Shown here one piece after another: positions 3,352-58,427 of a DNA stretch of 59,248 nucleotides. The position numbers and the translations under genes are program-made. Numbering within the stretch: the first letter of the stretch is position 1; each line of letters begins with the position of its first letter. Under the pieces are notes generated by a model. It was not told the origin of the DNA, ran no database searches, and was given only the letters and a program-made list of their open reading frames with translations. The stretch is from positions 1 through 59,248 of the forward strand of contig CAZMRP010000003.1 in the NCBI GenBank assembly GCA_964568275.1. Direction: 5' to 3'. This DNA is from an uncultured Myxococcales bacterium (lineage in GTDB: Bacteria > Myxococcota_A > Polyangia > DRWM01 > JAAZOP01).

Positions 3352-3359
3352 GAGTTGCG

Positions 3360-4475: not shown

Positions 4476-4479
4476 GCCG

Positions 4480-6695: not shown

Positions 6696-6705
6696 TGGTG
6701 GCCGG

Positions 6706-30498: not shown

Positions 30499-30509
30499 AC
30501 GGGTGAACG

Positions 30510-33187: not shown

Positions 33188-34380
33188 CTTCCAACTGGCC
33201 CCAGGTTCCGCTCGGCGATCTTCTCGATCCTGTCGTGCGGCCCGTGGACGTCCGCCCAGACGAGACCTACCGCGAGATCGGCATCCGCTCGCACGGCAGG
33301 GGCATCTTCCACAAGGAGCCCGTGAGCGGTCTGGAACTGGGCAACAAGCGCGTCTTCTGGATCGAGCCGGGCAACTTCGTGCTGAACATCGTCTTCGCGT
33401 GGGAGGGAGCCGTCGCGATCACCGGCCCGTCCGAACAGGGGATGATCGGTTCCCACCGTTTCCCTGCCTTCCGCGCGAGGGCGGACCGCCTCGATCCCAG
33501 ATTCCTCCTGTGGTTCTTCAAGACACCGCAGGGCTTGGACCTGTTGGGACGGGTTTCGCCTGGCGGAGCGGGACGGAACAGGACTCTCTCGAAGTCGGCC
33601 TTCCTCCAGCAGTCGGTCCCGGTTCCGTCATTGGACGAGCAACGCCGCATCGTCGAGAGATTGGAGCGGCTGGAATCGCAGGTCGCGGAGGCAGCGGACC
33701 TGTGCCGTCGAGCAGAGGCCGAGGCAGCGCAGCTTGTCGGTGCCGTGGTGGGTAGCGCATTCTCGGCCCTCCGGCGTGGCGACTGCTTCTGCGGCGGCTT
33801 GGGCGACGTCATTGCAGGGGCGTGCTACGGAACTTCCGAGAAGACGCACGACGAGCCAAGTGGCCTCCCGATTCTGAGGATGGGCAACATCCAGGAGGGC
33901 GTCCTCGACATCCGCGACGTGAAGTACCTACCATTCACAAGCGGCCACCGGGACAACCTTGTGCTCCAGAAGGGTGACATCCTGGTCAACCGGACCAACA
34001 GCCCCGAGCTCGTTGGCAAGAGCGCCGTGTTCGACCTGGACGGGGTGTGGGGCTTTGCGTCCTATCTCATCCGAATTCGATTGGACGCAAGCCGTGCGGA
34101 CTCGCGCTTGGTCACCTTCTACATCAACTCACCTGCCGGAAGGACCTACATGCTCGGGTCGAAGAAGCAGATGACGGGTCAAGCAAACGTCAGCATCGAG
34201 ACGCTGCGAGCACTGCCCGTCGTGCTGCCACCGATGCAGAAGCAGTTGGAGATGGCCGACCTCTTCGAGCGGATCAGGGTCAGCTCAAGGGATGCGACCG
34301 CGAACCATGCGCTCGTCGAGGCTCGGCTGCGTGCCCTCCAGGCCTCCGCCCTGGGGCGCGCTCTGGCAGGGGAGTTCTGA
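33184..34380 (+). CDS. hsdS: type I R-M specificity subunit
   Basis: Two target-recognition halves separated by the conserved coiled spacer PSLDEQRRIVERLERLESQVAEA. A second conserved helix lies at the C-terminus. Confidence 0.88.
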   Translation: MTSNWPQVPLGDLLDPVVRPVDVRPDETYREIGIRSHGRGIFHKEPVSGLELGNKRVFWIEPGNFVLNIVFAWEGAVAITGPSEQGMIGSHRFPAFRARADRLDPRFLLWFFKTPQGLDLLGRVSPGGAGRNRTLSKSAFLQQSVPVPSLDEQRRIVERLERLESQVAEAADLCRRAEAEAAQLVGAVVGSAFSALRRGDCFCGGLGDVIAGACYGTSEKTHDEPSGLPILRMGNIQEGVLDIRDVKYLPFTSGHRDNLVLQKGDILVNRTNSPELVGKSAVFDLDGVWGFASYLIRIRLDASRADSRLVTFYINSPAGRTYMLGSKKQMTGQANVSIETLRALPVVLPPMQKQLEMADLFERIRVSSRDATANHALVEARLRALQASALGRALAGEF

Positions 34381-34990: not shown

Positions 34991-36172
34991 CTACTTCTTG
35001 ACCGGGTCGGCCTCGGGCACGACGAGGCGTGCGAGCCGGTTGACGGCGGCGAGCTTCTCCTCCTTGGTGACGTTCGAGTAGTGCTCGGTCATCTTGTCGG
35101 AGCTGTGCCCGATGGTGGCGTGCAACACGGCGCGGTCGACGTGCTCCTGCCGCAGCAGGTTGTTGTAGGTCCGCCGCATGCCGTGCGGCGTGAAGCGCAT
35201 CGCAATCTGCGCCGCCTTCAGGATCCGCACGAACGGCTTCTTCAGGTACGACGCGCGATGGCAGCGTCCCTTGCCGCTGGGGAACACCCAGGCGCCGCCC
35301 ATCACCGGCAGCTTCCGGTCCACGAGGCTCGTCCGGTGGGCCCGGAGCGCATCGAGGATGATCGGGTGCAGCGCGGCCGATCGCGTCTTCCCGGTCTTGG
35401 GCGTCGTGATGCGGTTCCGCCAGACGGACTGCCGGATGTGGATGAGCCCCTCGGCTTCCGAGATGTCCTTCCACCGCAACGCGGCGAGTTCGCCGAACCG
35501 CATGCCGGTGAAGAAGCCCAGGACGCAGATGGCGTACACCTCGGGCTTCTCGTTCGCCGCCGCGTCCAGGAAACGCCGCAGCTGCTCGGCCGTGAGGGAG
35601 TTCGGCTCGTCCTCCGTCACGCGCGTCGGCTCGCTCGCGAGCGCCTTCACGCCCGTGGTCGGATCGCGTTCGAGCTCGAGGTCACCGACGGCGTCGCGGA
35701 TCAGGGACTTGATGATCCGCAGCCACGCGTTCACGGTGGCGTGCGCGCGGACGCGGCAGCGCTTGTCGCGGCTTCGGGCTGCCCACGACAGCCAGGCTTT
35801 GATGTCGGTCCTCCCGATCTCGTCCACGTACTTGCTGCCCAGGACGGGCAGGATCGCGTGCTCAAGCGCGTCGAGGTACCTGGCCTGCGTGGACGGCTTC
35901 ATCCCCTGCAGCTTCTTCTGCTCGAGCCAGGACCGCGCGTAGTCCGTAAGGGTCTGCCGGGTCGGCGATGCCGGCGCTGCCGGTGTTCCGGAGTGCAGGA
36001 GTTCCTCGCGCAGACCCTCCAGCAAGCCGAGGGCGTCCCGGACGTTTGCCGCTTCGACGACCCGCCGGATCGCGCGCCGCTTGTCCGAAACGGGGTAGCG
36101 GGTCTGCACCCGCAGTTCGAATAGCCCGGGTCCGAGCTGCCGGATTCCCGGGACCTGGACCTTCCGAGGCAT
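34991..36172 (-). CDS. tyrosine-type site-specific recombinase (phage integrase family)
   Basis: Catalytic blocks FFTGMRFGELAAL (Arg I), FTPHGMRRTYNN (HxxR) and HSSDKMTEHYSNV (Tyr). N-terminal SAM-like or arm-binding region. Confidence 0.9.
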   Translation of the reverse strand: MPRKVQVPGIRQLGPGLFELRVQTRYPVSDKRRAIRRVVEAANVRDALGLLEGLREELLHSGTPAAPASPTRQTLTDYARSWLEQKKLQGMKPSTQARYLDALEHAILPVLGSKYVDEIGRTDIKAWLSWAARSRDKRCRVRAHATVNAWLRIIKSLIRDAVGDLELERDPTTGVKALASEPTRVTEDEPNSLTAEQLRRFLDAAANEKPEVYAICVLGFFTGMRFGELAALRWKDISEAEGLIHIRQSVWRNRITTPKTGKTRSAALHPIILDALRAHRTSLVDRKLPVMGGAWVFPSGKGRCHRASYLKKPFVRILKAAQIAMRFTPHGMRRTYNNLLRQEHVDRAVLHATIGHSSDKMTEHYSNVTKEEKLAAVNRLARLVVPEADPVKK

Positions 36173-38114: not shown

Positions 38115-38628
38115 CGTCCGGCTCCTCGGGAGGAGAACTCCGCCCCGCCGGCCGGCCAGCGCCCAGCAGGAGCGGCGACGAGCGCCGCCCGGGCATCGCG
38201 CGCAAGGGCGGGTCCGCCGGAAGTTCCGGCACGGACCGAGGCCCACCACCAAGCACAGGTCGGAGCCGGGCCGAAACCAGGTCAGGCAGAGCGTGGCCGA
38301 GCTGTTCCCGCGCCTGCTGGACGCATCGACCGTCCCAACCCCGAGAGCCATCCTCCCAGCCCGACGACAACGGCGCCGCGATGGGGGACGGGCCTGCACC
38401 GGGTTCTCCTTCGACCTGACGCTGCAGGTCGCTGTCGCCGTACCCGTCGCGATCCTCTCCCTGCCGTCGAGGGTAGATGGGCTCGGGACCCAGGCTGCCG
38501 CGCTCGACCGGGCGGATGGCGAGAGGTCCGGCCGGCCGATCGTCGTGGTAGGCGGCGGGCAGCGGGTCGGCCGCCGGCAGGTCGCGCTTCTGGACCTCGG
38601 TCTTGGTCTGCTTGTTGTTGCCCGCCAT
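38107..38628 (-). CDS. hypothetical protein (173 aa)
   Basis: AGGAGG RBS. Its ATG overlaps the TGA of the ParB-like gene (TGATG), and its 3' end overlaps the helicase start by 8 nt. The composition is low-complexity. Confidence 0.5.
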   Translation of the reverse strand: MAGNNKQTKTEVQKRDLPAADPLPAAYHDDRPAGPLAIRPVERGSLGPEPIYPRRQGEDRDGYGDSDLQRQVEGEPGAGPSPIAAPLSSGWEDGSRGWDGRCVQQAREQLGHALPDLVSARLRPVLGGGPRSVPELPADPPLRAMPGRRSSPLLLGAGRPAGRSSPPEEPDDA

Positions 38629-40058
38629 CACCGCCTCCTGCCGGAGGCCGGCTTCTTCTGCGGTCCCGGTTTGGTCGTCGCCGGCACGAGCGCGGCGCCG
38701 ACCTTCTCCAGGATCTCGGCCGCCTTCACCAACCGGTCGCGCAGGCGCGTGCGCTCCGGCAGTCCCACCTTGGCGACGACCTCAGCCTGGCAACGCCACA
38801 CCACGTTGAGCGGCCCGTTGAAGGCGTCGAGAGCGGCCACCAGCTCGCGGACGACCGCCCTGGGCGACGAGACCGGCGGGGTGGGCGGGGACGGCGATGC
38901 CGTGTGCGCCTGACCCTGGGCCTCCCGAACGGCCTGACGCGTTTGGTCCCGGGTCTTCCCCTTGACCTTCGCCAGCACCGCCTCCTGCTTGTCCTTCGGC
39001 AGCTTCGCCAGTTCGTCGACCTGGGCCGGCGACACCTCCGAGCACTCGTACGCCGCGGCCACATTCGGGCTGGCCTTCTCCGAGCGGGCAAGGCTGCGCT
39101 GGACGTTTCGCTTGCTCTCGCCGGTGGCCCTCGCGGTCTCCGAGACGAACGAGTCAACCTGCGACGCCGCGTCGCAGGTTCCCTTCCTCTTCGCCGCCGA
39201 CTTCTTGCCGGCGGCGCTCAGGACGCCGGTACCCACGGCCTCCGGGTGCCGCTGCTCCCAGAGCGTCTTTCGGCGGCGAATGAGCTCGTCCCGTTCCGCT
39301 GGCAACGGGTCGACCCGCCGCAGGTTCTCGTCGATCCGGACCATTTCCGCGAGCCAGTCGTACTCGGGCCCCTCCGGGATGACGGTCGCGGTGATCTCCT
39401 TGAGGCCGGCACGCCGGTCCGCCTCGACGCGTCCCGCCCCAGCGATGACCGCGTAGCGCTTGCCGCGCTGCCGGAGAACCGGCGGGTGGATCGGGATCGT
39501 GTCCTTCCTGCTGGCGGCGAGGTCCACGAGTTGCTGTTCCGTGTGGCGGACAGCGGCGGGTTCGATCGCGTCCATGCCGACCGTCCGGACCTCGACGGCC
39601 GGCGCACCCGCCTTCGGCTGCTTGGGACTCGGGCCAGTACGGCTCGCAGGAGAGGACTGGTCGGTGGCACTGGGGCCACCTCGGACTGTCACCATGGAAC
39701 CGCCCGGCAACGACATCGTGCGCGCGTCGTTCGAGACGGTGTCAGCGGCGACCTTGCAGGCATTCGGCGTCGGCGGCTGCGCCACGCCGCCGACGATTCG
39801 ACTGTCGGTCGTGCAGCCCATGGCCTCGCGGAAACGGCGAGTCGAGTCCTCGACTGCCTGTCGAGATTCGTCCTGTCGAACGCTCTCGGTGTCCGGCGGC
39901 CTGCAAGTGGCCGGCAGCTCTGCGGTCGGCGCGTCCTCCGGACGTGCACGGCCCGCTCCACCGGCTCGCGCGCCCGGTTCAACAGTCGGGGTCGTGCCCA
40001 GGTTGAGAACCGGTGGATCGGGCAGCCCGTGCTTCTTCGTATCCGTCTCGTGCCCCAT
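38628..40058 (-). CDS. ParB/Sulfiredoxin-like nuclease-domain protein with a long disordered N-terminus
   Basis: ParB N-terminal box IPIHPPVLRQRGKRYAVIAGAGRVEADRRAGLKEITATVI. GGAGGAGG RBS. Confidence 0.75.
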   Translation of the reverse strand: MGHETDTKKHGLPDPPVLNLGTTPTVEPGARAGGAGRARPEDAPTAELPATCRPPDTESVRQDESRQAVEDSTRRFREAMGCTTDSRIVGGVAQPPTPNACKVAADTVSNDARTMSLPGGSMVTVRGGPSATDQSSPASRTGPSPKQPKAGAPAVEVRTVGMDAIEPAAVRHTEQQLVDLAASRKDTIPIHPPVLRQRGKRYAVIAGAGRVEADRRAGLKEITATVIPEGPEYDWLAEMVRIDENLRRVDPLPAERDELIRRRKTLWEQRHPEAVGTGVLSAAGKKSAAKRKGTCDAASQVDSFVSETARATGESKRNVQRSLARSEKASPNVAAAYECSEVSPAQVDELAKLPKDKQEAVLAKVKGKTRDQTRQAVREAQGQAHTASPSPPTPPVSSPRAVVRELVAALDAFNGPLNVVWRCQAEVVAKVGLPERTRLRDRLVKAAEILEKVGAALVPATTKPGPQKKPASGRRR

Positions 40059-43611: not shown

Positions 43612-44985
43612 TCAGGCCGGCAGGGCTGCGAGCGACTCGGTGGGCGGGCTCGACGCGGAGCTCGCCGCCTCCACGGTGGCGGCGTCGGGATCCTCGACCG
43701 TGCCGTGTTCGACGTCGGAGCCGCTCGCCGTGGCTTCCTCCACCGGGTCGTGTCCACGAATGGGCATGACGAGCATCCCGCGCGGACGGAGCTTCGTCCC
43801 GTCGGACACGACCTCGATGAACCGGACGGCGTCGAGCGGCGCGGAGTGCTGGAAGAGGCGCACCTCGTCGGTACGCACGGCGGCCAAGCAGCCCAGCACG
43901 TACCTGCCGCTCAGGTGGAGGTAGCCGGACGGGGAGTGGGCGACCTTCGCCGGGATCTCCCGCTGGGCCATGCCGCCGCCGTGGTCGGTGTACGCCACGA
44001 TGTGTAGCGCCCCCGTCGCGGGGTCCGCCTTGAACATGCACGCTGCGCCCTTCTCGTTGCTGACGCTGCTCACCGCCTTCGCTGCCGCGGCCAACTCATC
44101 GCGGTCGCAGGTCACCGACAGGTCGGGCTCGGCGGTCTCGCGCGGCAGGAAGCCCGCCCAGTGCGGCAGCGACGTCTCCGGTTCGGTGACGGCGACCTCG
44201 ACCCGCCGGTCGGCCGCCTCGAACACCAGACGGGCGAGCCACCTCTCCGGCGGCTTCTTCCCGTCCGTCTCGGCCGGTTGCGGGATGGCGGTCCGCACGA
44301 GCCGGACCGCGTCGAAGTCGGTGGCCAGCGCCTTGGTCGCGGGCTTCCAGTCGTCGCCGTGGATCTGGAACACGAACTTCGAGTCCGTGCAGCCGTGGGC
44401 GTCCCCGTCCACGAACAGCCGATGGCCGTCGGTGGCGACGACGGCGGGGACGGCGAGCCCGCCTTCCGCCTCGGCGAGGCACACGAACGGTCCCTTGGCG
44501 ATGGACCGGTATTCGCCGGGGTTCGCGAACACCATCGCCTCGGCGATCCGCTCGGCCAAGTCCCTGCTGTCCACGACGGCAAGCACGTCGCCGGCGGTCG
44601 GGCCCGTCTCCTCGATCATCGGCTCGCACGCCGGGATGGAGATCCGCTGGCCGCTGCCGGCGACCACGAGAGCGCGTTCGGCCCGTTCGATCTGAATGGC
44701 CGCGTGCCCGTACTTCTTGCCGCCGGCCATGGGGCGCAGGGCCTTGGCCAGCCGGGACGTTCCATCGGCGTCCAGCACGGCGACCCACGTCGCCCCCGGC
44801 TCGCACGGGATGCGGAACTCGACCTTCGCCTTTTCGGTCCTGGTCGTCGTGGCCAGAACCAGGGCGTCGGGCAGCCGGGCGATGCGCGTCCGACCCGGGT
44901 GGTGGCGCAGCGGGTCCTTCTCCAGGCACCAGGTGCAGGCGGCGATGGCGGCGGCGAACGGTTTGCAGGGGATGGTCGTCGTCAA
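43612..44985 (-). CDS. DNA polymerase III beta sliding-clamp homologue with an acidic C-terminal tail
   Basis: Clamp-type blocks VVATDGHRLF and GMLVMPIR, with a three-domain length. AGGAGG sits 6 nt before TTG 44985. Confidence 0.72.
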   Translation of the reverse strand: MTTTIPCKPFAAAIAACTWCLEKDPLRHHPGRTRIARLPDALVLATTTRTEKAKVEFRIPCEPGATWVAVLDADGTSRLAKALRPMAGGKKYGHAAIQIERAERALVVAGSGQRISIPACEPMIEETGPTAGDVLAVVDSRDLAERIAEAMVFANPGEYRSIAKGPFVCLAEAEGGLAVPAVVATDGHRLFVDGDAHGCTDSKFVFQIHGDDWKPATKALATDFDAVRLVRTAIPQPAETDGKKPPERWLARLVFEAADRRVEVAVTEPETSLPHWAGFLPRETAEPDLSVTCDRDELAAAAKAVSSVSNEKGAACMFKADPATGALHIVAYTDHGGGMAQREIPAKVAHSPSGYLHLSGRYVLGCLAAVRTDEVRLFQHSAPLDAVRFIEVVSDGTKLRPRGMLVMPIRGHDPVEEATASGSDVEHGTVEDPDAATVEAASSASSPPTESLAALPA

Positions 44986-45451: not shown

Positions 45452-46423
45452 CTACGCCGTCGGCGCTTGCGGCGGCAGCCCGAGGCGTTCGCGGACTTCG
45501 CCTTCCAGAAGGCGCCGCAGTTTGTCCGAGTCGCGCAGCGCGACGGCGAGCTTCTTGTGATCTCTGGCGATGGCCACCGGCAGGTCGGCCGACCCGTCCA
45601 GCAAGCCGTGCGCGATGATCTGGTCGGCCAGCTCGGCCAGACGGTCGATGCCGGTCGCGTGGCGGATCACGAACTCCGCCTCCGCGAACGGGCGGGCGAC
45701 CTTGTTCTTGACGACGCGGACGCGGGTGAGATGCCCCACGACACGCTCACCGTCCCGTTCGTCCTGGACCTTGCGAACGTCCAGCCGGACGGACGAGTAG
45801 AACTTGAGCGCGTTGGCGCACGGCACGCTCGCCCCGCCCTCGACCTCGGTCACGAACAGCAGGCAGGTGCCGGTGCGGTGGGCGACCGCGGTCAGCTTGC
45901 GTAGCGCCTGGCTCATGAGGCGCGCCTGGATGCCCGAGCACTCTTTGCCGGCTTCGCCCTCGATCTGGGCCCGGGGCGTGAGGGCGTTGACGGAGTCCAC
46001 GACGATGAGATCCACGCCGCCCGAGCGGCAGAGGATCTCGACGATCTCGAGCGCCTGCTCGCCGGTGTCCGGCTGCGAGAGATAGAGCTTGTCCACCTGG
46101 ACCCCGAGGGCGGCGGCGTACCGGATGTCCAGCGTGTGGTCGGCGTCCACGAACGCGGCGATGCCGCCGGCAGCCTGGGCCGAGGCGACGGCGTGGAGGG
46201 CCAGCGTCGTCTTCCCCGCGCCCCTCGATGCGAACAGCTCGACGACCCTGCCCCGAGGGTAGCCACCGACGCCAACGGCGGCGTCGAGGCCGAGGGAACC
46301 GGTGGAAACGGCCGCGACGGGCTCGCCGGGGCTGCCGTCGCCGAGCGACAGGATGCTCCCGACTCCGAACTGGCGATGGATGGCGCGGACGGCGGTCTCC
46401 ACCGCCGCGATCTTCTCGTGCAT
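45452..46423 (-). CDS. RecA-family recombinase paralogue (divergent P-loop, shortened L2 region)
   Basis: Colinear with bacterial RecA by eye (STGSLGLDAAVGVGGYPRGRVVE..., LSQPDTGEQALEI, DLIVVDSVNAL, GIQARLMSQALRKL, ALKFYSSVRLDVR, RVRVVKNKVARPF). AGGAGG sits 5 nt before ATG 46423. Confidence 0.85.
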   Translation of the reverse strand: MHEKIAAVETAVRAIHRQFGVGSILSLGDGSPGEPVAAVSTGSLGLDAAVGVGGYPRGRVVELFASRGAGKTTLALHAVASAQAAGGIAAFVDADHTLDIRYAAALGVQVDKLYLSQPDTGEQALEIVEILCRSGGVDLIVVDSVNALTPRAQIEGEAGKECSGIQARLMSQALRKLTAVAHRTGTCLLFVTEVEGGASVPCANALKFYSSVRLDVRKVQDERDGERVVGHLTRVRVVKNKVARPFAEAEFVIRHATGIDRLAELADQIIAHGLLDGSADLPVAIARDHKKLAVALRDSDKLRRLLEGEVRERLGLPPQAPTA

Positions 46424-46432
46424 CGGCACCTC

Positions 46433-50101: not shown

Positions 50102-51649
50102 TCAATCCTCCTCCCCGTCGGGCGGCATCGGGGAACACGAACCATCCGGGTCGGTCAGGCCCAGCGCCTCGGTGATGTGGCGCTTCTCCACGCCGTCGGC
50201 GCCATCAAGGTCGGCGATGGTGATCGCCACGCGGAGAGCGCGCTGGACCACGGCGCGTCCGATTCCGCCCCGGTCGGCGGCCACCTCCAGTGCCCGCCGC
50301 GCCGGCGAGTCGGGGGGGACGATCCGGACGATGTCGGCTTCGGCGAGGCCGGCATTGGCCTGGGCGAAGAGCCCGAGGCGCTTCGCCCGTTCCGCCTGCC
50401 GGCTGCGTGCCACGGCAATGCGCGCCTTGGCGGCCGCGATCGTCGTCGTCGGGGCCAGGTCCTGGCCCACGGGCGCGGGGCGAACCCGCACCTGGATGTC
50501 GAACACGTCGCCGAGCGGGAACCGCAAGCGACTCCGGTACCGCTCGACCGCGGTCGGCCTGCAGCGGCAGGTGCGGAGGGCGCTCCCCTGGAGCCCGCAG
50601 GGACAGGGGTTCGCGGCGGCGACGAGTTGGAACCGGGCCGGCAGCCGGACGGTGCCGTCCGAGCGGCAGATGGACGCCTCGCCGGTCTTGACGGCGTGGC
50701 GGACGATCTCGAGCGCTCCGGTGTTGAACTCCGGCAGTTCGTCCAGGAAGAGGACTCCGTGGTGGGCGAGGCTCGCCTCGCCGGGCCGCGTGGGGTTTCC
50801 GCCGCCGAGCAGGCCGGCGAAGCTTACGGTGTGGTGCGGCGCCCGGAACTCGCGCCGCCTCGGGTCGTAGCGGTCGGGGTCCAGCAGGCCGGCGGCGGAC
50901 CAGATGGTCGCCGTCTCCCGCGCCTCATCGAGCGCCGGCGGCGGCAGGAGGAGCGACAGCCGGCTGGCCAAGAGCGTCTTGCCGGACCCTGGTGCCCCGA
51001 CCAGCAGGAGATGGTGGCCGCCGGCGGCTGCGACTTCGAGCGCCCGCCGCGCCTCGGGCGATCCCGGAATGATGTCGTCGTCCCGCATTGGGCCGGTGCC
51101 GGTGCCGGTCGGGGCCACGGTCGCCGTGAGCCGCTGCTGCCCGAGCAGATGCAGCAGCACGTCGCCCAGGGTCGGGGCGCCGAGGACCTCGATCCCCTCC
51201 ACCCAGGGCACGACCTCCCGGGCATTCCGGGTCGGCACGATGATGCTCGTCGCGCCGGCCGCTTTCGCCGCCAGCGCCGCGGGGAGCGCGCCCCGGATGG
51301 GCAGGACCGAGCCCGCCAGCGTCAACTCCCCTGCGAACCACGTCGCGTCCGTGACCTCCGGCGGCAGGTTGCCCGTGGAGACGAGGAGGCTGATGGCGAC
51401 GGGGAGGTCCAGCGCGGCCGAGCGCACCGGCGGGTCGCCGGGAACGGCGCCCATCATGATGCAGTGCGGCGGGAGGTCGAAGCCGCAGCGGCGCAGGGCG
51501 GACTGGACGCGAACCAGGCACTCCCTGGCGGCCCGCTGCACCCAGCCCGTCCACCGGGGGGCCGCCCAGCGCCGGTCGTACTCGATCTCGATCACGGTAT
51601 CGTTGGCGACGACGCCGTCCAGGACGGCGCCGTGGATTCGTGCGAGCAA
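50102..51649 (-). CDS. comM: YifB/ComM-family Mg-chelatase-like AAA+ ATPase
   Basis: N-terminal Lon-protease-like fold region, Walker A LLLVGAPGSGKT, Walker B VLFLDELPEF and the Cys cluster AAANPCPCG...CRC. AAAGGAGAG sits 4 nt before TTG 51649. Confidence 0.85.
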   Translation of the reverse strand: MLARIHGAVLDGVVANDTVIEIEYDRRWAAPRWTGWVQRAARECLVRVQSALRRCGFDLPPHCIMMGAVPGDPPVRSAALDLPVAISLLVSTGNLPPEVTDATWFAGELTLAGSVLPIRGALPAALAAKAAGATSIIVPTRNAREVVPWVEGIEVLGAPTLGDVLLHLLGQQRLTATVAPTGTGTGPMRDDDIIPGSPEARRALEVAAAGGHHLLLVGAPGSGKTLLASRLSLLLPPPALDEARETATIWSAAGLLDPDRYDPRRREFRAPHHTVSFAGLLGGGNPTRPGEASLAHHGVLFLDELPEFNTGALEIVRHAVKTGEASICRSDGTVRLPARFQLVAAANPCPCGLQGSALRTCRCRPTAVERYRSRLRFPLGDVFDIQVRVRPAPVGQDLAPTTTIAAAKARIAVARSRQAERAKRLGLFAQANAGLAEADIVRIVPPDSPARRALEVAADRGGIGRAVVQRALRVAITIADLDGADGVEKRHITEALGLTDPDGSCSPMPPDGEED

Positions 51650-51757
51650 GTCGCTCTCCTTTCTGGAAGAGGGTGGCCGGGGGGCGGGCAAGGTGCTGAC
51701 CGGATTCGGTGCTTTGCCCCTGTGGGGTTCCCGTCCCCCGGCCGTCCCCGCGGGGAA

Positions 51758-52140: not shown

Positions 52141-53076
52141 TCAGTCCTCCAGGACGATGCGACGAGCCGGCCGGTCGACCACCATCGTGTCCAGGACGGA
52201 CTGGACCTGGGCCATCCCGTCGCGGACCTTGGTCCGGATGGCGTCGCTGGCCCGAAGGGCGTTGGCGTCCACGCCGTCGAGGGTCTTGCGGCAGCGCTCG
52301 ACGAGCTGGGCGAGCTGGGTGTCGTCGGTGACGTTCCGCGGGTCGAAGAGGTCCAGGTAGTCGGTCATGTTCTCGACCAGGGTGTCGCGAAAGACCTTGG
52401 GCTTCGCGTCGCCGTTCCCCTGCAGGCGTTCGACCATGTGGTCCACGACATCGGCGAGGCCGGCGCGCAGCGCCTGCCGCACCTCCTCGGACGCCTCGCG
52501 CCACTGCGCCTCGGCCTTCGCCTTCTCGCGCTCGAAGAGGTCCTTGCGGATCCCCTCCAGCTTCGCGGGGACGCCGAATGCGAGGTACCGCACGTCCACG
52601 TAGAACGCCGCGCGGACCCGCTCGTCGCTCGGATAGTCGCTCGCATCGAAGAGGCCGTTGAGCCGCTTCTTGGCATCCTCGACCGACTTGTCGTAGACGG
52701 CCAGGAACGCGTCGGCGAGAAACCGGCGCTTCTCCTGGTACTCGACGATCTTGCCGTCCACCTGCTCCACGAGGTCGATCGGGATGAGGTACGTCCCGCG
52801 CCTGAACGGCGACGGGAGGGCCCTCTTCGCGAGCCACGCCCGCATTTCGCCGTCGAGCGTCTTGATGGCGTCGAGTTCGTCGGACTCCAGGATCGCCTTG
52901 CTGACATGGAGCAGGTCCTTGTCCGCGTCGACCTGGATGTTGGAGGACGACACCTTGCGGCGCGTCCCGAGGCACCCGACGGCGAGCGAGAGGCACACGG
53001 CGCGGTCGAGCAGGCCGTGGCCGTTTCCGTTCATCGGCAGCGGCACCTGTCCGGTGCCGGCAGCGGCTTCCGTCAT
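52141..53076 (-). CDS. hypothetical protein (311 aa; reminiscent of conserved ICE/plasmid DUF proteins, family not verified)
   Basis: AAGGAGAAG RBS. Lys/Glu-rich helical protein with normal composition. Confidence 0.65.
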   Translation of the reverse strand: MTEAAAGTGQVPLPMNGNGHGLLDRAVCLSLAVGCLGTRRKVSSSNIQVDADKDLLHVSKAILESDELDAIKTLDGEMRAWLAKRALPSPFRRGTYLIPIDLVEQVDGKIVEYQEKRRFLADAFLAVYDKSVEDAKKRLNGLFDASDYPSDERVRAAFYVDVRYLAFGVPAKLEGIRKDLFEREKAKAEAQWREASEEVRQALRAGLADVVDHMVERLQGNGDAKPKVFRDTLVENMTDYLDLFDPRNVTDDTQLAQLVERCRKTLDGVDANALRASDAIRTKVRDGMAQVQSVLDTMVVDRPARRIVLED

Positions 53077-53103: not shown

Positions 53104-53670
53104 TCAGGTTAGGGTCGCGTTGTTGATGCCGGTCATGACGGCCTTGCCCCGGTCGAGCACGACCTCCATCCCGGGCACCGCTTCCAGGTCGGTCAGCGTG
53201 TAGCGGTCGGTGAGCAGGTGGATCGTCTGGTTCGTGGATCCGAGCAGGGCATACCCGAGGTGCTGGCGTTTCCGGTAGGGACCGGCGACCACGACGTCGG
53301 CGAGGCGGGCCACGTTCATGAGCCGCGGCTTCCCGGGGAGGTAGTTCCACTCGTAGCCGGTGAAGAGCACGACGGACAGGTCGGTCGCCTTCCGGACCTT
53401 CCGGAGGAGCGCTTCCACCGCATCCGGTTGTTGGAGGGGTTCCCCGCCGGAAACGGTGATTCCCTCGATGTCGGAGGTGGATCGCACCCAGGCGACGACA
53501 TCCCCGACGGGCATGTCCGTGCCGCCCTGCGAGTCCTGGGCGTCGGGGTTGCAGCATCCGTCGCAGTGGAGGCTGCAACCCTGGGCCCAGATGACGGCGC
53601 GGCGCCCCGGGCCGTTGGCGTAGCTGCGTTCGAGGAGGGCGTGGACGCGCAGGGTCAGTGGCGGGCGCAT
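53104..53670 (-). CDS. NrdG/PflA-like small radical SAM activating enzyme (orphan)
   Basis: N-terminal GPGRRAVIWAQGCSLHCDGCCNP (CX3CX2C directly after a Gly-rich segment) and GITVSGGEPL, at about 188 aa. These are typical of anaerobic RNR or glycyl-radical activases. Confidence 0.72.
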   Translation of the reverse strand: MRPPLTLRVHALLERSYANGPGRRAVIWAQGCSLHCDGCCNPDAQDSQGGTDMPVGDVVAWVRSTSDIEGITVSGGEPLQQPDAVEALLRKVRKATDLSVVLFTGYEWNYLPGKPRLMNVARLADVVVAGPYRKRQHLGYALLGSTNQTIHLLTDRYTLTDLEAVPGMEVVLDRGKAVMTGINNATLT

Positions 53671-53849
53671 CGCTTCGCCTGGAGCGGGACCTCGTACGCC
53701 TCCCGGGTCGCCGTGCGCTTGGTCACCTTGCCCAACGCCTTCTCGACCTCGTCGGTGAGGTCGGTGCAGGTCTTGCCCTTGGCGCCCTGGACGTGGAGCG
53801 TCACCTGCCCGTCCTCGCCGACGACCACCTCGATCTCGACGGGCTTCAT
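53655..53849 (-). CDS. DUF2997-like small protein (64 aa)
   Basis: IEVVVGEDGQVTLHVQGAKGKTCTDLTDEVEKALGKV matches my recollection of the DUF2997 pattern. ATGA overlap with the DUF1257-like gene. Confidence 0.6.
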   Translation of the reverse strand: MKPVEIEVVVGEDGQVTLHVQGAKGKTCTDLTDEVEKALGKVTKRTATREAYEVPLQAKRCARH

Positions 53850-54253
53850 GCGGACCTCCGCAGGACGACGTGCAGCTTCCCGTCCCGGGCCTCTTCCCGC
53901 ACGACCCGGAACCCCTTCTTGGCGAGCTTGGCCACGGCGACATGGCGGCCGTAGCGCTGAAGGAGGCGGTTGCGCCAGTCCTGGCCGTAGCCGTTCTGCT
54001 GGTCGTACTCGGAGATGACGGCCTCGAAGGCGCCGCTCGCCGTCTTCCGGAACCCGATGTCGTTGGACAGCGGACCGACGTGGTCGCGGCGGACGATCAC
54101 CTCCGCCTTCTCCGGGCGCACGTCGGCCTCGTAGCCGTAGAGGTGCTGCGGCTGGTTGTGGACCTCGACCTTGTCGAGGCCGAGGTCGGCGAGCGCGGCG
54201 ACCAGGGCGTCGCGGTCGCGGATCTCGAGCGCGATGCTCGTGTAGTGGGACAT
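53846..54253 (-). CDS. DUF1257 (Ycf35-like) protein (135 aa)
   Basis: MSHYTSIALEIRDRDALVAALADLGL... matches the MSH[FY][ST].I...I.D...L..AL.DLG start of the family as I recall it. It starts 2 nt after the AAA+ stop. Confidence 0.68.
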   Translation of the reverse strand: MSHYTSIALEIRDRDALVAALADLGLDKVEVHNQPQHLYGYEADVRPEKAEVIVRRDHVGPLSNDIGFRKTASGAFEAVISEYDQQNGYGQDWRNRLLQRYGRHVAVAKLAKKGFRVVREEARDGKLHVVLRRSA

Positions 54254-54255
54254 GG

Positions 54256-55746
54256 TCAGTTGCCTTCCGGGTTGATGGCGCGGCCGAGCTCCGACGCCGG
54301 TGCCGGCGACGCGGTCGGGTTCACGTAGACACCCCCGCGGCTGGCATCGAGGAACCGGTGATGGGCGAGCCGGCGGAGGGCGGCGACCTGTTCGGCGCTC
54401 GACACGGCGACCGGCACGATGAAGCGGGACGCGTCCTTCAGCGAGCAGTCGAGGCGCCAAGCGATGGTGCAGCACGTGCGGATCTCGGCGCCCGTCCAGC
54501 TCGAGTCGTTTGGGTGGTCCTGTCCGTCGAGCCCGTACTTCGTTTCGTAGATGCGCCAGATGGCGGCCCGCTCGTCCTCCGACGGAAGATCGAACGTCCA
54601 GATCCCGTAGCAGAAGCGGCGTCGCAGCTCGGGCGGGATGCGGTCGAGGCCGTTCGCGGTCGCGATCCACAGCTCGTGCCCGCCGGCGATGGCCGTGACG
54701 ACGCGGAGCGCGCTCCGGATCTTCGTCTCGGACTCGGACACCAGCGAGCCCTTGGCCGCGCCCAGGTCGAGCTGGACGCACGGGATTCCGCCGGTACGCG
54801 CCGTGGCCCGGGCGAACATGCTCTTGGCGCTGCCGGGCGGACCGACGCAGATCATGCCCGTCGAGCCGCCGGCCTGCATGTGCTGGAGCAGGACGCCGAG
54901 CTGGTCCTGCGCGACGCCCGACAGGTCGCCCGAGGCGCCGGCGAGCTGCTTCTCGATCTCGTCCACCCAGATGACCGCCGCCGGGCGGTCCCGCCCCGCC
55001 AGCAGACGCCTCCCGAACTCCTTCACGGCGGCCAACCCGCCGATGGAGTCGTAGTCGTCGACGGATTCGTCGATGGCCAAGCCGGCGGTCTGCCGGATGA
55101 ACGACGTCTTGCGCGCCCAGAGCCGGCCCAGGTCCAGGCCGCTCTTGCGCAGGCTGAGCGCGACGGCCTGCTCTGCGGCAAACTGGGAGAGGCCCCGGAC
55201 GGCGGCGACGGCGCGGCCGAGCGTCTCGGCGTCGAGGTCGGGCAGCTTCCCCGCATGCACCTGGGCCTGGACGATCTCCCCGAGCGCCTCGCCTTCGGGC
55301 AGCGGTTCCTCGATGGTCAGCACGTCGTGTGCCAGTTCTGGCGGCAGCGAGAACGAAGCGCCCAGGAGGACGAGCATGCGGCCGTCCTGCTTGAACCGGT
55401 CGCGGAGGTTGACGACTCCCTGGATGACCGCCTCGGACGAGGGTCCGGAAAGGCAACGGTCGCCCTGGAACACCAGGATGACGGCATCATTCGGCAGGCG
55501 GACCGCGCGCTCCAGGATGTCGGCGGGCCCGGTGATGGAAGCCGCGTCGCCGCCGACCGCCGCCTCCGACGCGGCCTGACCCGCCTCGTTGAGGGGGTAG
55601 GCGCCCCGGATGAGATCCCAGCCGACGACGCCGGTTCCGAGGTTCTGCGCGATGGTGTCGCCGGTAGCGACGGCGTCGGCGGTGGACAGCGCCACGATGG
55701 GAACACCCACCCGCCTGGCCGCCTGGATCTGATCGATGATCTTCAT
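54256..55746 (-). CDS. AAA+ ATPase (Ycf46/classic-AAA-like) with an unusual motif order
   Basis: P-loop MICVGPPGSAKS, GSLVSESETKIRSAL, sensor-1-like LWIATANG and RIPPELRRRF. The Walker-B-like AVIWVDEIEK lies upstream of the P-loop. Confidence 0.8.
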   Translation of the reverse strand: MKIIDQIQAARRVGVPIVALSTADAVATGDTIAQNLGTGVVGWDLIRGAYPLNEAGQAASEAAVGGDAASITGPADILERAVRLPNDAVILVFQGDRCLSGPSSEAVIQGVVNLRDRFKQDGRMLVLLGASFSLPPELAHDVLTIEEPLPEGEALGEIVQAQVHAGKLPDLDAETLGRAVAAVRGLSQFAAEQAVALSLRKSGLDLGRLWARKTSFIRQTAGLAIDESVDDYDSIGGLAAVKEFGRRLLAGRDRPAAVIWVDEIEKQLAGASGDLSGVAQDQLGVLLQHMQAGGSTGMICVGPPGSAKSMFARATARTGGIPCVQLDLGAAKGSLVSESETKIRSALRVVTAIAGGHELWIATANGLDRIPPELRRRFCYGIWTFDLPSEDERAAIWRIYETKYGLDGQDHPNDSSWTGAEIRTCCTIAWRLDCSLKDASRFIVPVAVSSAEQVAALRRLAHHRFLDASRGGVYVNPTASPAPASELGRAINPEGN

Positions 55747-55772: not shown

Positions 55773-56528
55773 TCAGAACGGCCGGTTCTCGTCGGCCTGC
55801 CCGTTGCCGTTGCCGTTCTCGAACTGGGCGCCGACGTCGAGCCGGGCGAACCGCTCGGACCATACCCGGTACTTGCCGGCGGGGCTGACCGGCTGCACGG
55901 CGGCCACGATGGGCAGGAAGTAGTTGCCCTTGGCGGAGGTCTCGCGCCGGAGCTTCAGCACGCACTCCAGGTCGTGGAGCGCCACGCGCCGCTGCCAGGC
56001 GAGGGTGCGGATGATCTTGATCGTGCGGATGGCCGCCCCGTGGAAGCCCATCGCGAAGGGCGTCTCGGTCGAGAGGTCCAAGGCGATCATGAGGAACGTG
56101 TCCCTGCACTCGGGCCGTCCCTGCCGCGGCCACTCCGCCTTCGGGCAGACCGGGCGAAGGCGACGGCCCGCCACGATGCAGCAGGCCTCGCTCACCGTCT
56201 TCTCGATGAGCGAAGACGGGTAGAGGCCGTCGTCGGACCGGCAGACCGGATCGCTCCCGATCTCCGCGCCCCACAGCACCCGGCCGCGCTGGATGCGCAG
56301 CGGCGCCAGCCGAAGCTCGCTCCGCTCGGAGCCGTCGAGGTTCGAGCGGAACGTGCCCGGTGTCCCTTCCTTGCTCGTCGGCTGGACCACCGCGTAGCGC
56401 GGCACCAGCACGTCGTCCTCGTACACCGGCCCGCTGTCGTCGGGTCGGATGATCGCAGCGTCGGCGCCCTCGTTGCTCTCGGTCCGGGGGTGGACCATCA
56501 CGGTCCCATCCTGCACGCTCGTTTCCAT
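55773..56528 (-). CDS. hypothetical protein (251 aa), partner of the Cas4-like nuclease
   Basis: Co-directional ORF with balanced composition and conserved-looking Cys pairs (PVCRSDDG..., CCIVAG...PVCPKAEW...PEC). Confidence 0.6.
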   Translation of the reverse strand: METSVQDGTVMVHPRTESNEGADAAIIRPDDSGPVYEDDVLVPRYAVVQPTSKEGTPGTFRSNLDGSERSELRLAPLRIQRGRVLWGAEIGSDPVCRSDDGLYPSSLIEKTVSEACCIVAGRRLRPVCPKAEWPRQGRPECRDTFLMIALDLSTETPFAMGFHGAAIRTIKIIRTLAWQRRVALHDLECVLKLRRETSAKGNYFLPIVAAVQPVSPAGKYRVWSERFARLDVGAQFENGNGNGQADENRPF

Positions 56529-56550: not shown

Positions 56551-57630
56551 CTATGCCTCGTCGATCAGCTCTTCGTGCGCGACGTCCTTCGTCATGAACC
56601 CCGTTGCGTCGCCGTGCCAGCAGAGCGGCCGGTACCGACACACGCCGTACGCGCCTCGGCACGCCGGGCCGCGCTTGCTCACGTAGCCGTACTTCTCGGC
56701 GCGGCGGATTCCGTCCGCGACGCGCCACAGGTTCACCATCGCCTCGCGCCGCAACTCATCGTTCACGGGCAGCACCACGCGCCTGAAGGACTTCTCCGGC
56801 TCCTTGCGGTACTCGTCCAGCGCCCGCGTCTCGAACGCCTCGGGGGTCTCGTCCTTCCTCGGCCGGATGCGTGGCTTCGCGACGATGTCCAGCACCGCGC
56901 CCAGGCACGGGCCGTGGCCACCGTCGAGATGCTCCTCGACCAGCGCCTGGTAGATTGCGGGCTGGGCCGAGAACCGCATCGCCTCAACGAACGCGTCGAG
57001 GTCCTCGCTCGTCGTCTTGATCTCAGCCACGCAGTAGCCGTCGGCACCGTTGCCGCGGCGGCGGGCGATAGCGTCGATCCTCCCGGCGAGCATGAACGTC
57101 CGGGACGGTCGGCCGGTCAGCGGGTTGCGGAGCGGCGCATTCAGCGCCAACTCGGTTTCGATGACCTCCAGGTCGCGGTCGAGGAACGTCAGCACCTCGG
57201 GGTGGGCATCGGCCAGGGGCGCGGAATCGTGCTGTTCCAGCCAAGCGCGGAGCATGGCGTGGGCCTTCGCTGCGTCCCAGGCCATGCTCTCGGCCAGCGC
57301 CGCCTTCCCGGTCTCGTCGAGCGACAGCCGGGCCCGGGCGGCGAACGATTCCATCTTCCCGGCCGCGACGACCCACGCCTCGGCCAGGGAGCGACCGTGG
57401 TGCAGAGCCTCGATCCCGGCGTGGACGCCGGAGCCGATGGCCAACGCCGGGGGATACGCGGTCGGGACGATGAGGTCTTCGTAGCAGAACTTGTACTCGA
57501 CCTGGCACGTCGACCACGCCTGCATGCTCGAGTGGGTCAGCAGGCGCGGAGTGCGTTCGGGAAGCGGGCAGGGCATCGGTGCGGTCGTCGCCGCGGCCGA
57601 CGGCGTGGTCTCGACGGCGCAGGTCTCCAT
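56551..57630 (-). CDS. PD-(D/E)xK nuclease, RecB/Cas4-like with a C-terminal Cys cluster
   Basis: GRIDAI...YCVAEIKTT (D...ExK), QPAIYQALVEE (QxxxY) and C-terminal CRGAYGVCRYRPLCW. AAGGAG RBS 6 nt before ATG 57630. Confidence 0.75.
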   Translation of the reverse strand: METCAVETTPSAAATTAPMPCPLPERTPRLLTHSSMQAWSTCQVEYKFCYEDLIVPTAYPPALAIGSGVHAGIEALHHGRSLAEAWVVAAGKMESFAARARLSLDETGKAALAESMAWDAAKAHAMLRAWLEQHDSAPLADAHPEVLTFLDRDLEVIETELALNAPLRNPLTGRPSRTFMLAGRIDAIARRRGNGADGYCVAEIKTTSEDLDAFVEAMRFSAQPAIYQALVEEHLDGGHGPCLGAVLDIVAKPRIRPRKDETPEAFETRALDEYRKEPEKSFRRVVLPVNDELRREAMVNLWRVADGIRRAEKYGYVSKRGPACRGAYGVCRYRPLCWHGDATGFMTKDVAHEELIDEA

Positions 57631-57680
57631 CGTCTGCTCCTTCCTGCCGCCAGAAAGGGGCGGCCGGACGCTGTACTGCT

Positions 57681-58427
57681 TCAGTTCGTCGCCGGGGATG
57701 CCGTCTGCGGCGCTAGCGTCGCCGGGGGCGGCTGGGTGCGGTGTGCGGGGCGGGCGTGACGACGGGCGGGATGGGCGGCGGCCGAGGTCGTTCGCGCCTG
57801 CTGGAGCGTCTGCTGGACGGTTTCGGACGGGAAACGGATGCGCCTCCGCCACGCCAGCGAGCGGCTGGCGCGCTCCGACCACGTCCGGATGAGGGCGCCG
57901 TCATCGGCCATGCGCACGTCCCAGATGCCGGCGATGGCGACGCGCCCGTCGTCGCGAACGGCATGGAGCGCAACGTGGACGTCGTCCTGGTCCACGAAGA
58001 TGGCCAGCGCCTCCCGGGCAACGAGCCGGTCGCGCCACCGGCGCAGCGGGCGGCTGTCCAGCCCCCGCCACGCCAGGGCCCACCCCGCCCCGCGCTTGTC
58101 GCGCACCGCCATCTGCACGTCGGTGCGGACACGGTGCTCGCGGGCCCAGGCGAGGAACTGCATCACGGCGGGCGAGCCCTCGTCCCCGACGACGCGGGCG
58201 AGGAACATGCCCTCGACGGAACCCGAGCCCGTGCAGGTCTGGCAGGTCGAGACACACCGCAAGGTGCGCCGGCGGAACGTGCGCACGCCGCTGCCCGAAC
58301 ACGTCGGACAGCAGCCCGTCGCCGCCGCTTCGCCGGTCCTCGCCGGGCGAACGAACGATTCGATCCCATCGACCTCGGGCGGCACGAGCCCCGCGCAGAG
58401 CGGGCCCGCGCAGATCACGAGCTGCAT
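57681..58427 (-). CDS. hypothetical protein with a DnaJ-type CxxCxGxG zinc-finger pair
   Basis: CPTCSGSG...CQTCTGSG near the N-terminus. AAGGAG sits 6 nt before ATG 58427. Confidence 0.55.
   Translation of the reverse strand: MQLVICAGPLCAGLVPPEVDGIESFVRPARTGEAAATGCCPTCSGSGVRTFRRRTLRCVSTCQTCTGSGSVEGMFLARVVGDEGSPAVMQFLAWAREHRVRTDVQMAVRDKRGAGWALAWRGLDSRPLRRWRDRLVAREALAIFVDQDDVHVALHAVRDDGRVAIAGIWDVRMADDGALIRTWSERASRSLAWRRRIRFPSETVQQTLQQARTTSAAAHPARRHARPAHRTQPPPATLAPQTASPATN

Follow-up and report, generated by a model that had tools for sequence, protein, structure and literature searches.

The closest described counterparts of the gene cluster reported here are the Ycf46 and Ycf35 proteins of cyanobacteria and plastids. 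A conserved cyanobacterial cluster joins DUF2997, ycf35 and fed7; the product of the last, the [4Fe-4S] ferredoxin Fed7, binds a DnaJ-like protein (PMC4284462). In freshwater red-algal plastids, ycf35 and ycf46 were both among the lost genes in a survey of 127 genomes (PMC5940233). In Synechococcus elongatus, a three-gene ycf46 operon was induced as a severe-stress, (p)ppGpp-dependent checkpoint; Ycf46 was reported to interact with KaiC, and published links of Ycf46 and Ycf35 also extend to CO2 use (bioRxiv 10.1101/2025.07.21.665879). None of the Ycf35 and Ycf46 papers that were found gives a mechanism, and searches of the literature for DUF1257, DUF2997, DUF3150, Ycf35, Ycf46 and permuted AAA+ proteins returned no functional study of a bacterial or phage module. 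We analyzed such a module on the minus strand of a 59,248-nucleotide (nt) stretch of DNA from an uncultured Myxococcales bacterium (assembly GCA_964568275.1, contig CAZMRP010000003.1, positions 1 to 59,248), hereafter the window. It shares with the cyanobacterial cluster the same protein families (DUF1257 is the Ycf35 family), the adjacency of DUF2997 and DUF1257 and a [4Fe-4S] protein as third or fourth partner. It differs from the cyanobacterial and plastid versions in that its AAA+ ATPase is permuted, the [4Fe-4S] protein is a radical S-adenosylmethionine (SAM) enzyme and not a ferredoxin, the operon also includes DUF3150 and a mobile element carries the whole. The genes of the operon, with protein lengths in amino acids (aa), are the following.

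55746 (ATG) to 54256 (TGA), minus strand: AAA+ ATPase, 496 aa (Pfam AAA, 1.7e-10).
54253 (ATG) to 53846 (TGA), minus strand: DUF1257 protein, 135 aa (Pfam PF06868, 1.9e-16).
53849 (ATG) to 53655 (TGA), minus strand: DUF2997 protein, 64 aa (Pfam PF11211, 2.1e-15).
53670 (ATG) to 53104 (TGA), minus strand: radical SAM enzyme, 188 aa (Pfam Fer4_12, 7e-27; Radical_SAM, 1.4e-8).
52141-53076, minus strand: DUF3150 protein, 311 aa, fifth gene of the operon (Pfam PF11348, 2.7e-7).
52138 (GTG) to 51758, minus strand: 126-aa protein, sixth gene (no Pfam match).

The initial annotation, which was made from the letters of the window alone, had described the first four of these genes as a co-translated module. 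The junctions it gave were exact when the reverse complement was read: a 2-nt gap between the AAA+ and DUF1257 genes, an ATGA overlap between DUF1257 and DUF2997 and a 16-nt overlap between DUF2997 and the radical SAM gene. A purine-rich, Shine-Dalgarno-like stretch was present before each of the four starts and was weak before the radical SAM gene. All four family assignments (AAA, DUF1257, DUF2997 and NrdG-like) were likewise upheld by Pfam matches over the cut-off, with NrdG as the nearest NCBIfam family. The extent of four genes was too short. DUF3150 begins 27 nt past the radical SAM gene with an AAGGAG ribosome-binding site, and the 126-aa gene, which has a homologue at the same position in the related loci L003, L173 and L174, starts 2 nt beyond the DUF3150 stop, so that the operon continues to at least five to six genes. 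The module of the window is the fullest form: a permuted AAA+ protein, DUF1257, DUF2997, a PflA/NrdG-like radical SAM enzyme, DUF3150 and the 126-aa protein, translationally coupled.

The island that carries this operon recurs in a 305-kb contig of a Myxococcota metagenome-assembled genome (MAG) and in four further contigs (metagenome or read-run assemblies). In these five contigs the gene order and the 4-nt and 16-nt overlaps are kept, while the radical SAM enzymes are only 64-72% identical to that of the window. The recurrence with conserved order and overlaps means that the gene coupling is conserved and not accidental, and that an integrated mobile element, in a Myxococcota-like genome, carries the module.

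The AAA+ protein has the motifs of an active ATPase in an unusual order. Walker A, Walker B (VDEIEK), sensor 1 (ATAN) and the arginine fingers (RRRF) are all present, and the catalytic residues are invariant; K308, S309, E263, N365, R376 and R377 are among the positions without exception in 41 aligned sequences. The motifs are placed as follows.

54949-54975, minus strand: Walker B, VIWVDEIEK, residues 258-266, 44 residues ahead of Walker A.
54820-54843, minus strand: Walker A, GPPGSAKS, residues 302-309.
54652-54672, minus strand: sensor 1, LWIATAN, residues 359-365, 57 residues past Walker A.

The canonical succession of Walker A, Walker B and sensor 1 is hence absent from the window protein (258, 302 and 359 being the starts of Walker B, Walker A and sensor 1). 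Alignment with its relatives showed that the whole Walker B strand and helix segment (VIWVDEIEK...SGV...LLQHMQ) precedes Walker A. The chromosomal relatives, the protein of Rhizobium phage L338C and three plasmid versions have the canonical order of Walker A, Walker B (+54) and sensor 1 (+94), and in such canonical relatives the homologous segment is located after helix alpha-2. Because the segment is transposed, database matches to the window protein are partial: Pfam AAA aligned over profile positions 1-53 of 131 only, and the sequence matches in the PDB (Cdc48, VCP and AFG2) covered only residues 293-354, from Walker A through helix alpha-2. Among the 120 closest homologues the permuted order was found in 109 and the canonical order in none, and the remaining 11 share the spacing between Walker A and sensor 1. 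The close homologues with the permuted order come mostly from uncultured phages.

In the AlphaFold2 model of the protein (predicted local distance difference test, pLDDT, 90.9; predicted template modelling score, pTM, 0.82) the transposed unit, composed of strand 257-261 and helix 264-293, lies directly before the Walker A strand (296-301). The top Foldseek matches of the model were p97/VCP, Cdc48, Rix7 and NVL, with E values of ∼1e-12 to 1e-13 over ∼540-600 alignment columns. As these alignments span both halves of the protein and the N-terminal half has no Walker A, the N-terminal 230 residues appear to be a degenerate D1-like tier. The model thus predicts a two-tier protein of the Cdc48/p97 type, with a degenerate N-terminal half and a C-terminal, permuted AAA+ domain in which the motifs are intact. 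The protein is called Ycf46-like here after the database names of its canonical relatives: UniRef calls the relatives in Streptomyces and Planktothrix 'Uncharacterized AAA domain-containing protein ycf46', and JGI places them in the 'SpoVK/Ycf46/Vps4 family'. With the Cdc48/p97/VCP-type unfoldases the module protein shares the fold over both halves, membership of the classical AAA clade, the second region of homology and the arginine fingers. The module AAA+ also always occurs with small partner proteins, as those unfoldases have small adaptors, but DUF1257 and DUF2997 are unrelated to the known adaptors. It differs from Cdc48/p97 in the lack of a Walker A in the N-terminal domain and in the position of Walker B ahead of Walker A in the active domain. 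No report of such a permutation was found in the literature searched, an absence that is no proof of novelty; the phage clade would be without precedent among AAA+ families in having Walker B moved in front of Walker A, and it offers a natural experiment on the limits of rewiring the AAA+ core.

The fourth gene encodes an enzyme with the CX3CX2C cluster motif (C32, C36 and C39; 53554-53577) and a glycine-rich SAM-binding motif, which place it in the radical SAM superfamily. The three cysteines, the GGEP motif (G75-G76-E77-P78) and an N19-G20-P21-G22-x-R24 loop are invariant in 26 aligned family members. The loop aligns to DGPGIR of the pyruvate formate-lyase activating enzyme (PFL-AE), where the GPGxR loop contacts the glycine loop of the substrate, and a search of the PDB with the family profile returned PFL-AE at 2.5e-18 over residues 7-149. 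The best NCBIfam match was NrdG (TIGR02491, 2e-26), and the names given by JGI and PHROG read 'anaerobic ribonucleoside-triphosphate reductase activating protein', as if the protein were an ordinary NrdG that activates an anaerobic ribonucleotide reductase encoded elsewhere. Every equivalog cut-off was missed, however, with 92.8 bits against 126.1 for TIGR02491, 47.8 against 131.15 for NrdG2 and 46.9 against 152 for another NrdG model; the PflA model, too, was matched (3e-18) at 65.9 bits against a cut-off of 231.75. In a six-frame search with a PROSITE-like glycyl-radical signature (R-V-x-G-[FYW]) the matches were scattered and, in the 5 kb around the radical SAM gene, did not recur at any locus; the island part of the window had none. 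Members of the family were also found in Streptomyces, Actinomadura and Dactylosporangium, three obligately aerobic genera where a stable glycyl radical is not to be expected. Together with the tight linkage to DUF2997 described below, these results make an ordinary NrdG highly improbable.

The enzyme belongs instead to a distinct family of stand-alone proteins of ∼185-300 aa, for which 1,061 clusters at 50% identity were found at E<=1e-30. Its members resemble PflA and NrdG in the CX3CX2C motif, the GGE SAM motif, the N-terminal GPGxR loop and the small size, and differ from them in the sub-cut-off scores, the aerobe hosts, the lack of a nearby glycyl-radical enzyme and the presence of a conserved neighbour of 60-70 aa. 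The radical SAM protein is an activase-type enzyme that probably acts on a protein, though not on a canonical glycyl-radical enzyme. A large and broad activase-like family that has no glycyl-radical enzyme as its target is of interest in itself, since its substrate would define a new radical chemistry on proteins.

The initial annotation had left open whether the machine modifies proteins or nucleic acids. A nucleotide- or DNA-modifying enzyme of the QueE, viperin or another small-molecule type, with the other module genes as unrelated passengers, would fit weak matches to QueE (TIGR04349, 7e-7; phrog_2076, 5e-7) and the DNA enzymes in the surroundings (a PD-(D/E)XK nuclease, ComM and RecA). 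The matches to glycyl-radical activases are far stronger (NrdG in NCBIfam, PFL-AE in the PDB), and the latter include the peptide-binding loop; no other 7-deazaguanine family was found among the genes scanned with Pfam, NCBIfam and PHROGs, a scan that some smaller open reading frames (ORFs) lay outside; and the conserved neighbour over 46 loci is DUF2997 and not a DNA enzyme. A nucleotide or nucleic acid substrate is accordingly very unlikely, and of the two options it is modification of a protein that agrees with the reading preferred here.

The two small proteins of the module are well-supported members of their families. DUF1257 scored 60.6 bits against a gathering cut-off of 22.2 over the full profile (1-103), and DUF2997 scored 56.7 bits against 24.1, also over the full profile (1-47). 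In the DUF1257 alignment Ser2, His3, Leu21, Asp65, Gly67, Phe68 and Gly74 are invariant, including a D65-x-G67-F68 motif. DUF2997 has the motif D-G...V-x-G-x-x-G-x-x-C, the part from G22 to C28 being encoded at 53766-53786; its Cys is nearly invariant and is the single conserved Cys of the DUF1257/DUF2997 pair. The AlphaFold2 model of DUF1257 (pLDDT 95, pTM 0.88) has an alpha/beta fold for which Foldseek gave no PDB match at E<0.001. In BFVD a single viral match was obtained (template modelling, TM, score 0.68), which is probably a phage homologue. The best non-homologous fold match in both the PDB and BFVD was the N-terminal region of Bcs1-type AAA proteins (Bcs1 or a Bcs1-like viral protein), which are translocators of a folded Fe-S protein; at E values of 0.07-0.09 and a TM score of ∼0.27 this match was not significant. 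DUF3150 scored 30.6 bits against a cut-off of 24.9 over profile positions 1-191 of 257, and 505 bits with a custom family hidden Markov model (HMM). No PDB relative and no PHROGs family was found for it, and PDB sequence searches with DUF1257, DUF2997 and a DUF3150 profile gave chance-level matches only.

To place the radical SAM enzyme in its genomic neighbourhoods, one genome per GTDB species was scanned. At least 593 relatives were found, and 80 loci were kept and annotated with HMMs that were built and iterated from the window proteins, partners being counted within 8 kb. DUF2997, DUF1257 or the AAA+ gene was near the radical SAM gene in 50 of the 80 loci, in more than 10 phyla, and of the 50 loci that extend 3 kb or more to either side, 35 had a partner. 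The taxa include Chloroflexota, Planctomycetota, Verrucomicrobiota, Acidobacteriota, Actinomycetota, Myxococcota, Desulfobacterota, Armatimonadota, Nitrospirota and Obscuribacterales. All three partners occurred together with the enzyme in 36 of the 80 loci. In 42 of 46 loci the gene directly upstream of the radical SAM gene was DUF2997, and the positions of the AAA+ and DUF1257 genes varied.

Many chromosomal loci are flanked by housekeeping genes, as in an Anaerolineae MAG where DUF1257, DUF2997 and the radical SAM gene lie amid them. Clustering of neighbouring ORFs revealed two recurrent further partners: a WD40 protein of ∼690 aa (42 loci), the N-terminal third of which consists of HEAT repeats, and a truncated HSP70-like protein of ∼535 aa (25 loci). 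A Streptomyces genome has the series WD40 protein, 190-aa protein, HSP70, DUF2997, radical SAM, AAA and DUF1257, and its 190-aa protein is weakly GrpE-like over the full length. No nuclease, protease or other effector domain was found among the recurrent neighbours of the chromosomal loci. With chaperone and scaffold partners and no effector, the chromosomal form looks, from its gene content, like a dedicated chaperone-type machine.

The mobile versions were approached through the permuted AAA+ protein, which is common in uncultured viral genomes (139 relatives in IMG/VR). Of these, 80 loci were kept, and the census of the permuted AAA+ comprised 82 loci in total; the permuted type was further found in element-like contexts of Nitrospira calida and Longimicrobium terrae. 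DUF3150 was present in 81 of the 82 loci and the canonical DUF1257-DUF2997 pair in ∼44. Thirty-two of the remaining loci seemed at first to have the AAA+ and DUF3150 genes only. That they lack DUF1257 was rejected, since the ∼110-aa protein encoded right after their AAA+ gene is a divergent DUF1257 (hhalign probability 96.5%, E 8e-10). Nearly all phage loci with the permuted AAA+ thus encode a DUF1257-like protein. The AAA+/DUF1257-like/DUF3150 trio is a common, unannotated function of the phage early region. The statement of the initial annotation that DUF1257 and DUF2997 genes recur side by side, in many cases along with an AAA ATPase, was confirmed in related loci, phages and plasmids. Its view of the radical SAM gene as an addition to that set needs revision: the enzyme is a distinct family, tied to an upstream DUF2997, that is common in chromosomal versions and rare in phages, being present in 2 of the 82 loci with permuted AAA+. 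One of these two (L127) has the exact order of the window. In 34 phage loci (for example L153, 11104-11430) where the radical SAM gene is lacking, a conserved ∼108-aa protein with no Pfam match follows DUF2997; it occupies roughly the place of the radical SAM gene in the window.

Plasmids carry versions with the non-permuted AAA. Plasmid pC of Paenarthrobacter ureafaciens encodes this AAA with a DUF1257-like protein, DUF2997, a 294-aa protein and the radical SAM enzyme; a Ca. Manganitrophus plasmid encodes it with DUF1257, DUF2997 and DUF3150; and Planktothrix plasmids encode it with DUF2997 and DUF1257. In the Ca. Manganitrophus plasmid (CP114554; L171, 6375-7922) DUF1257 and DUF3150 are each split in two ORFs, which points to frameshifts caused by assembly error or by decay. 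The sole cultured phage found with the permuted type is Tunturiibacter phage Tunturi_3. Its gp96 (L001, 11696-12655), annotated as 'HNH endonuclease', is a clear DUF3150 homologue (473 bits with the custom family HMM, 34% identity to the window protein over 95% of its length), and by this likeness the annotation is probably wrong. Streptomyces, the Paenarthrobacter plasmid pC and phage Tunturi_3 are tractable carriers of the module. Radical SAM enzymes from modules of the DUF3150 type fell into at least two separate clades of a rough neighbour-joining tree, which suggests that the enzyme was exchanged between chromosomal and mobile versions.

Across all versions, the invariant core is the Ycf46-like AAA+ protein with DUF1257. 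DUF2997 is the usual third member, and a [4Fe-4S] protein, either the radical SAM enzyme or Fed7, is a frequent fourth. The additions are lineage-specific: chromosomal versions have HSP70-like, GrpE-like and HEAT-WD40 proteins, and those of mobile elements have DUF3150. The module in the window is of the mobile-element type. Every part belongs to a known superfamily, and the whole matches no characterised system, PADLOC model or literature that was found.

The initial annotation had also raised defence or counter-defence as a role, in which the AAA+ and radical SAM proteins would sense or attack an invader, or an invader's copy would dismantle host immunity. Several features of the loci are in keeping with this: phages, plasmids and integrated islands all carry the module, the window also encodes a type I restriction-modification system not far away, AbiEii is located 2 kb away in one Streptomyces locus, and the AAA+/HSP70/beta-propeller sets of multicellular bacteria resemble the conflict systems in PMC7159879, a work in which the system itself is not described. 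Direct support was not obtained. Ten proteins gave no meaningful match in PADLOC-DB v2, where the AAA+ protein matched IetA at E 0.0035 and ComM matched generic AAA; neither a nuclease, protease or TIR domain nor any other effector is fused or linked to the module, and the partners that are added belong to the chaperone and scaffold kind. Cyanobacteria and plastids have the core as a stable set of genes (Ycf46 and Ycf35), and the housekeeping flanks of many chromosomal loci speak against defence as well. The phage copies sit in a replication and recombination region, with genes for DnaG, DnaB, YqaJ, ERF, PD-(D/E)XK nucleases and SNF2 helicases. A defence role is thus unlikely, and what the element gains from the module is probably remodelling, early and in the replication region, and not immunity. 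The two roles are not mutually exclusive.

The combination of families suggests an ATP-driven protein-remodelling module in which the DUF1257/DUF2997 pair is modified or gated by the radical SAM enzyme, a reading that is plausible but falls somewhat short of probable. DUF1257 and DUF2997 would form a small complex that is the dedicated partner, adaptor or client, of the AAA+ ring. The radical SAM enzyme would abstract hydrogen from one of the module's own proteins. Given that the radical SAM gene nearly always comes directly after that for DUF2997, the likeliest target would be the G-x-x-G-x-x-C loop of DUF2997, which could receive a radical-derived modification or adopt a redox-dependent 'armed' state; as a specific claim, that DUF2997 is the target is rather doubtful. 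The AAA+ protein would then spend ATP to load, unfold or release the complex or a bound target protein, and the HSP70-like, GrpE-like and HEAT-WD40 proteins of the chromosomal versions may serve the same job. Fed7 would hold in cyanobacteria the genomic place that the radical SAM enzyme has here. For the element, the module would act early, in the replication region, by remodelling a host or element protein complex.

A number of results weigh against this proposal. Within the 8-kb limit, 30 of the 80 radical SAM loci had no partner, and in 12 loci of Kofleriaceae/Myxococcales the radical SAM gene directly follows two tandem TldD/PmbA-like genes, with neither DUF2997 nor DUF1257 present. The enzyme is missing from 80 of the 82 modules with permuted AAA+. 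The conserved residues of DUF2997 and DUF1257 are the same with or without a radical SAM gene nearby, so that the core role of the pair does not need the enzyme, and a search of both proteins for residues conserved only beside it, as a modification site, revealed none that stood out. The pore-loop position of the AAA+ protein, as read from the consensus, is a Leu and not an aromatic residue, and substrate threading is therefore not assured. Finally, DUF3150 and the 126-aa protein are not accounted for by the proposed mechanism.

The loci of the TldD/PmbA type are L023, L033, L049, L060, L062, L068-L070, L074, L077, L084 and L086. TldD/PmbA-like genes encode metallopeptidases, a context that is again tied to protein or peptide processing. 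In the rough neighbour-joining tree the enzymes of this context form mostly one clade that is nested among the others.

A role in Fe-S or redox handling was considered as well. DUF1257 and DUF2997 would then be a carrier, repair factor or redox relay for a [4Fe-4S] client, with the AAA+ and HSP70 proteins in the role that HscA/HscB have in cluster transfer. This would account for two different [4Fe-4S] proteins filling the same niche beside DUF2997/DUF1257, and it is consistent with the nearly invariant Cys of DUF2997, the invariant Ser2-His3 and Asp65 of DUF1257, the HSP70-like and GrpE-like partners and the binding of Fed7 to a DnaJ-like protein. Yet the pair offers one conserved Cys only, ∼80 of the 82 phage modules have no recognisable Fe-S protein, and a Pfam scan of the module proteins gave no match to an Fe-S scaffold family. 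We consider this role decidedly unlikely.

Operons of the benzylsuccinate synthase (Bss) type combine the activase BssD, the MoxR-type AAA+ chaperone BssE and two tiny Fe-S subunits. The module is similar in that one operon encodes an activase of the glycyl-radical type together with an AAA+ chaperone and two proteins of very small size. It differs in that its AAA+ protein is of the Cdc48 type and in that DUF1257 and DUF2997 lack the multi-Cys cluster sites of the small Bss subunits; no gene or signature for a large glycyl-radical subunit of the X-succinate-synthase type was found in the window or the related loci.

A stronger form of the remodelling proposal is that DUF2997 and DUF1257 constitute a new pair of radical-bearing or radical-modified mini-proteins, in which the modification would be installed by the activase and the pair handled by a Cdc48-like AAA+ protein, joined by HSP70 in the chromosomal versions. 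We regard this as improbable, and if it were true it would give ycf35 and ycf46 a mechanism. These two genes have been known as conserved in cyanobacteria and algal plastids for decades without one, and the bacterial operons, with their chaperone and Fe-S partners, offer a testable hypothesis. Under this stronger form, phages, plasmids and many bacterial phyla would have in common an unrecognised radical-plus-chaperone machine that, with Fed7 replacing the radical SAM enzyme, would extend to cyanobacteria and plastids.

The surroundings of the module in the window support its placement on a mobile element, as the initial annotation had it: a tyrosine integrase and genes for ParB-like, RecA, ComM and PD-(D/E)XK nuclease proteins accompany it, with chromosomal genes to the left. 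The window has a G+C content of ∼70%. Its left 17 kb consist of chromosomal lipid, outer-membrane and TonB-receptor genes, and from 36.5 kb to the end of the window there is a single long minus-strand gene array (ParB-like, RecA, DUF4120, DUF3085, ComM and the module). The closest protein relatives are from Myxococcota ('Deltaproteobacteria') MAGs. No tRNA gene was found in the window, and megablast of the island against phage and plasmid collections gave no match. The further features are as follows.

28132-34380, plus strand: type I restriction-modification system (HsdR 28132-30498, HsdM 30510-32099, HsdS ∼33235-34380).
34991-36172, minus strand: tyrosine integrase.
38628-39575, 43612-44985 and 45452-46429, all minus strand: intervals among which lie the ParB-N-like protein, the full-length RecA and a 457-aa protein.
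50102-51691, minus strand: ComM/YifB-type Mg-chelatase-like AAA+ protein (Pfam Mg_chelatase, 1.5e-70; TIGR00368, 5e-101, under its cut-off).
55773-56528, minus strand: 251-aa protein, directly upstream of the AAA+ gene with a 26-nt gap.
56551-57882, minus strand: PD-(D/E)XK (RecB/Cas4-like) exonuclease, start codon uncertain (phrog_1218 'exonuclease', 2e-14).

The ComM gene is at the same position in L003, L173 and L174, and outside this element family it is not part of the module. The 251-aa protein had no match in Pfam, NCBIfam, PHROG or PADLOC; its homologues are at the same position in L003 and L174, and it is kept within this element family. The homologues of the exonuclease in L173 and L174 match Pfam PDDEXK_1. 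The 457-aa protein has a homologue in L003 with a weak beta-clamp match (DNA_pol3_beta_3). In the restriction-modification region the G+C content is 0.65-0.68, below that of its surroundings, and a gene for a YhcG/DUF1016 PD-(D/E)XK nuclease (32096-33187) sits between hsdM and hsdS. A chromosomal lipid/glycolipid cluster at 2024-11208 (plus strand) encodes a CDP-alcohol phosphatidyltransferase, an LPG-synthase-TM-like protein, a glycosyltransferase, an MMPL transporter, an acyltransferase and an epimerase, and includes a second radical SAM gene (3360-4475) that is unrelated to the module enzyme.

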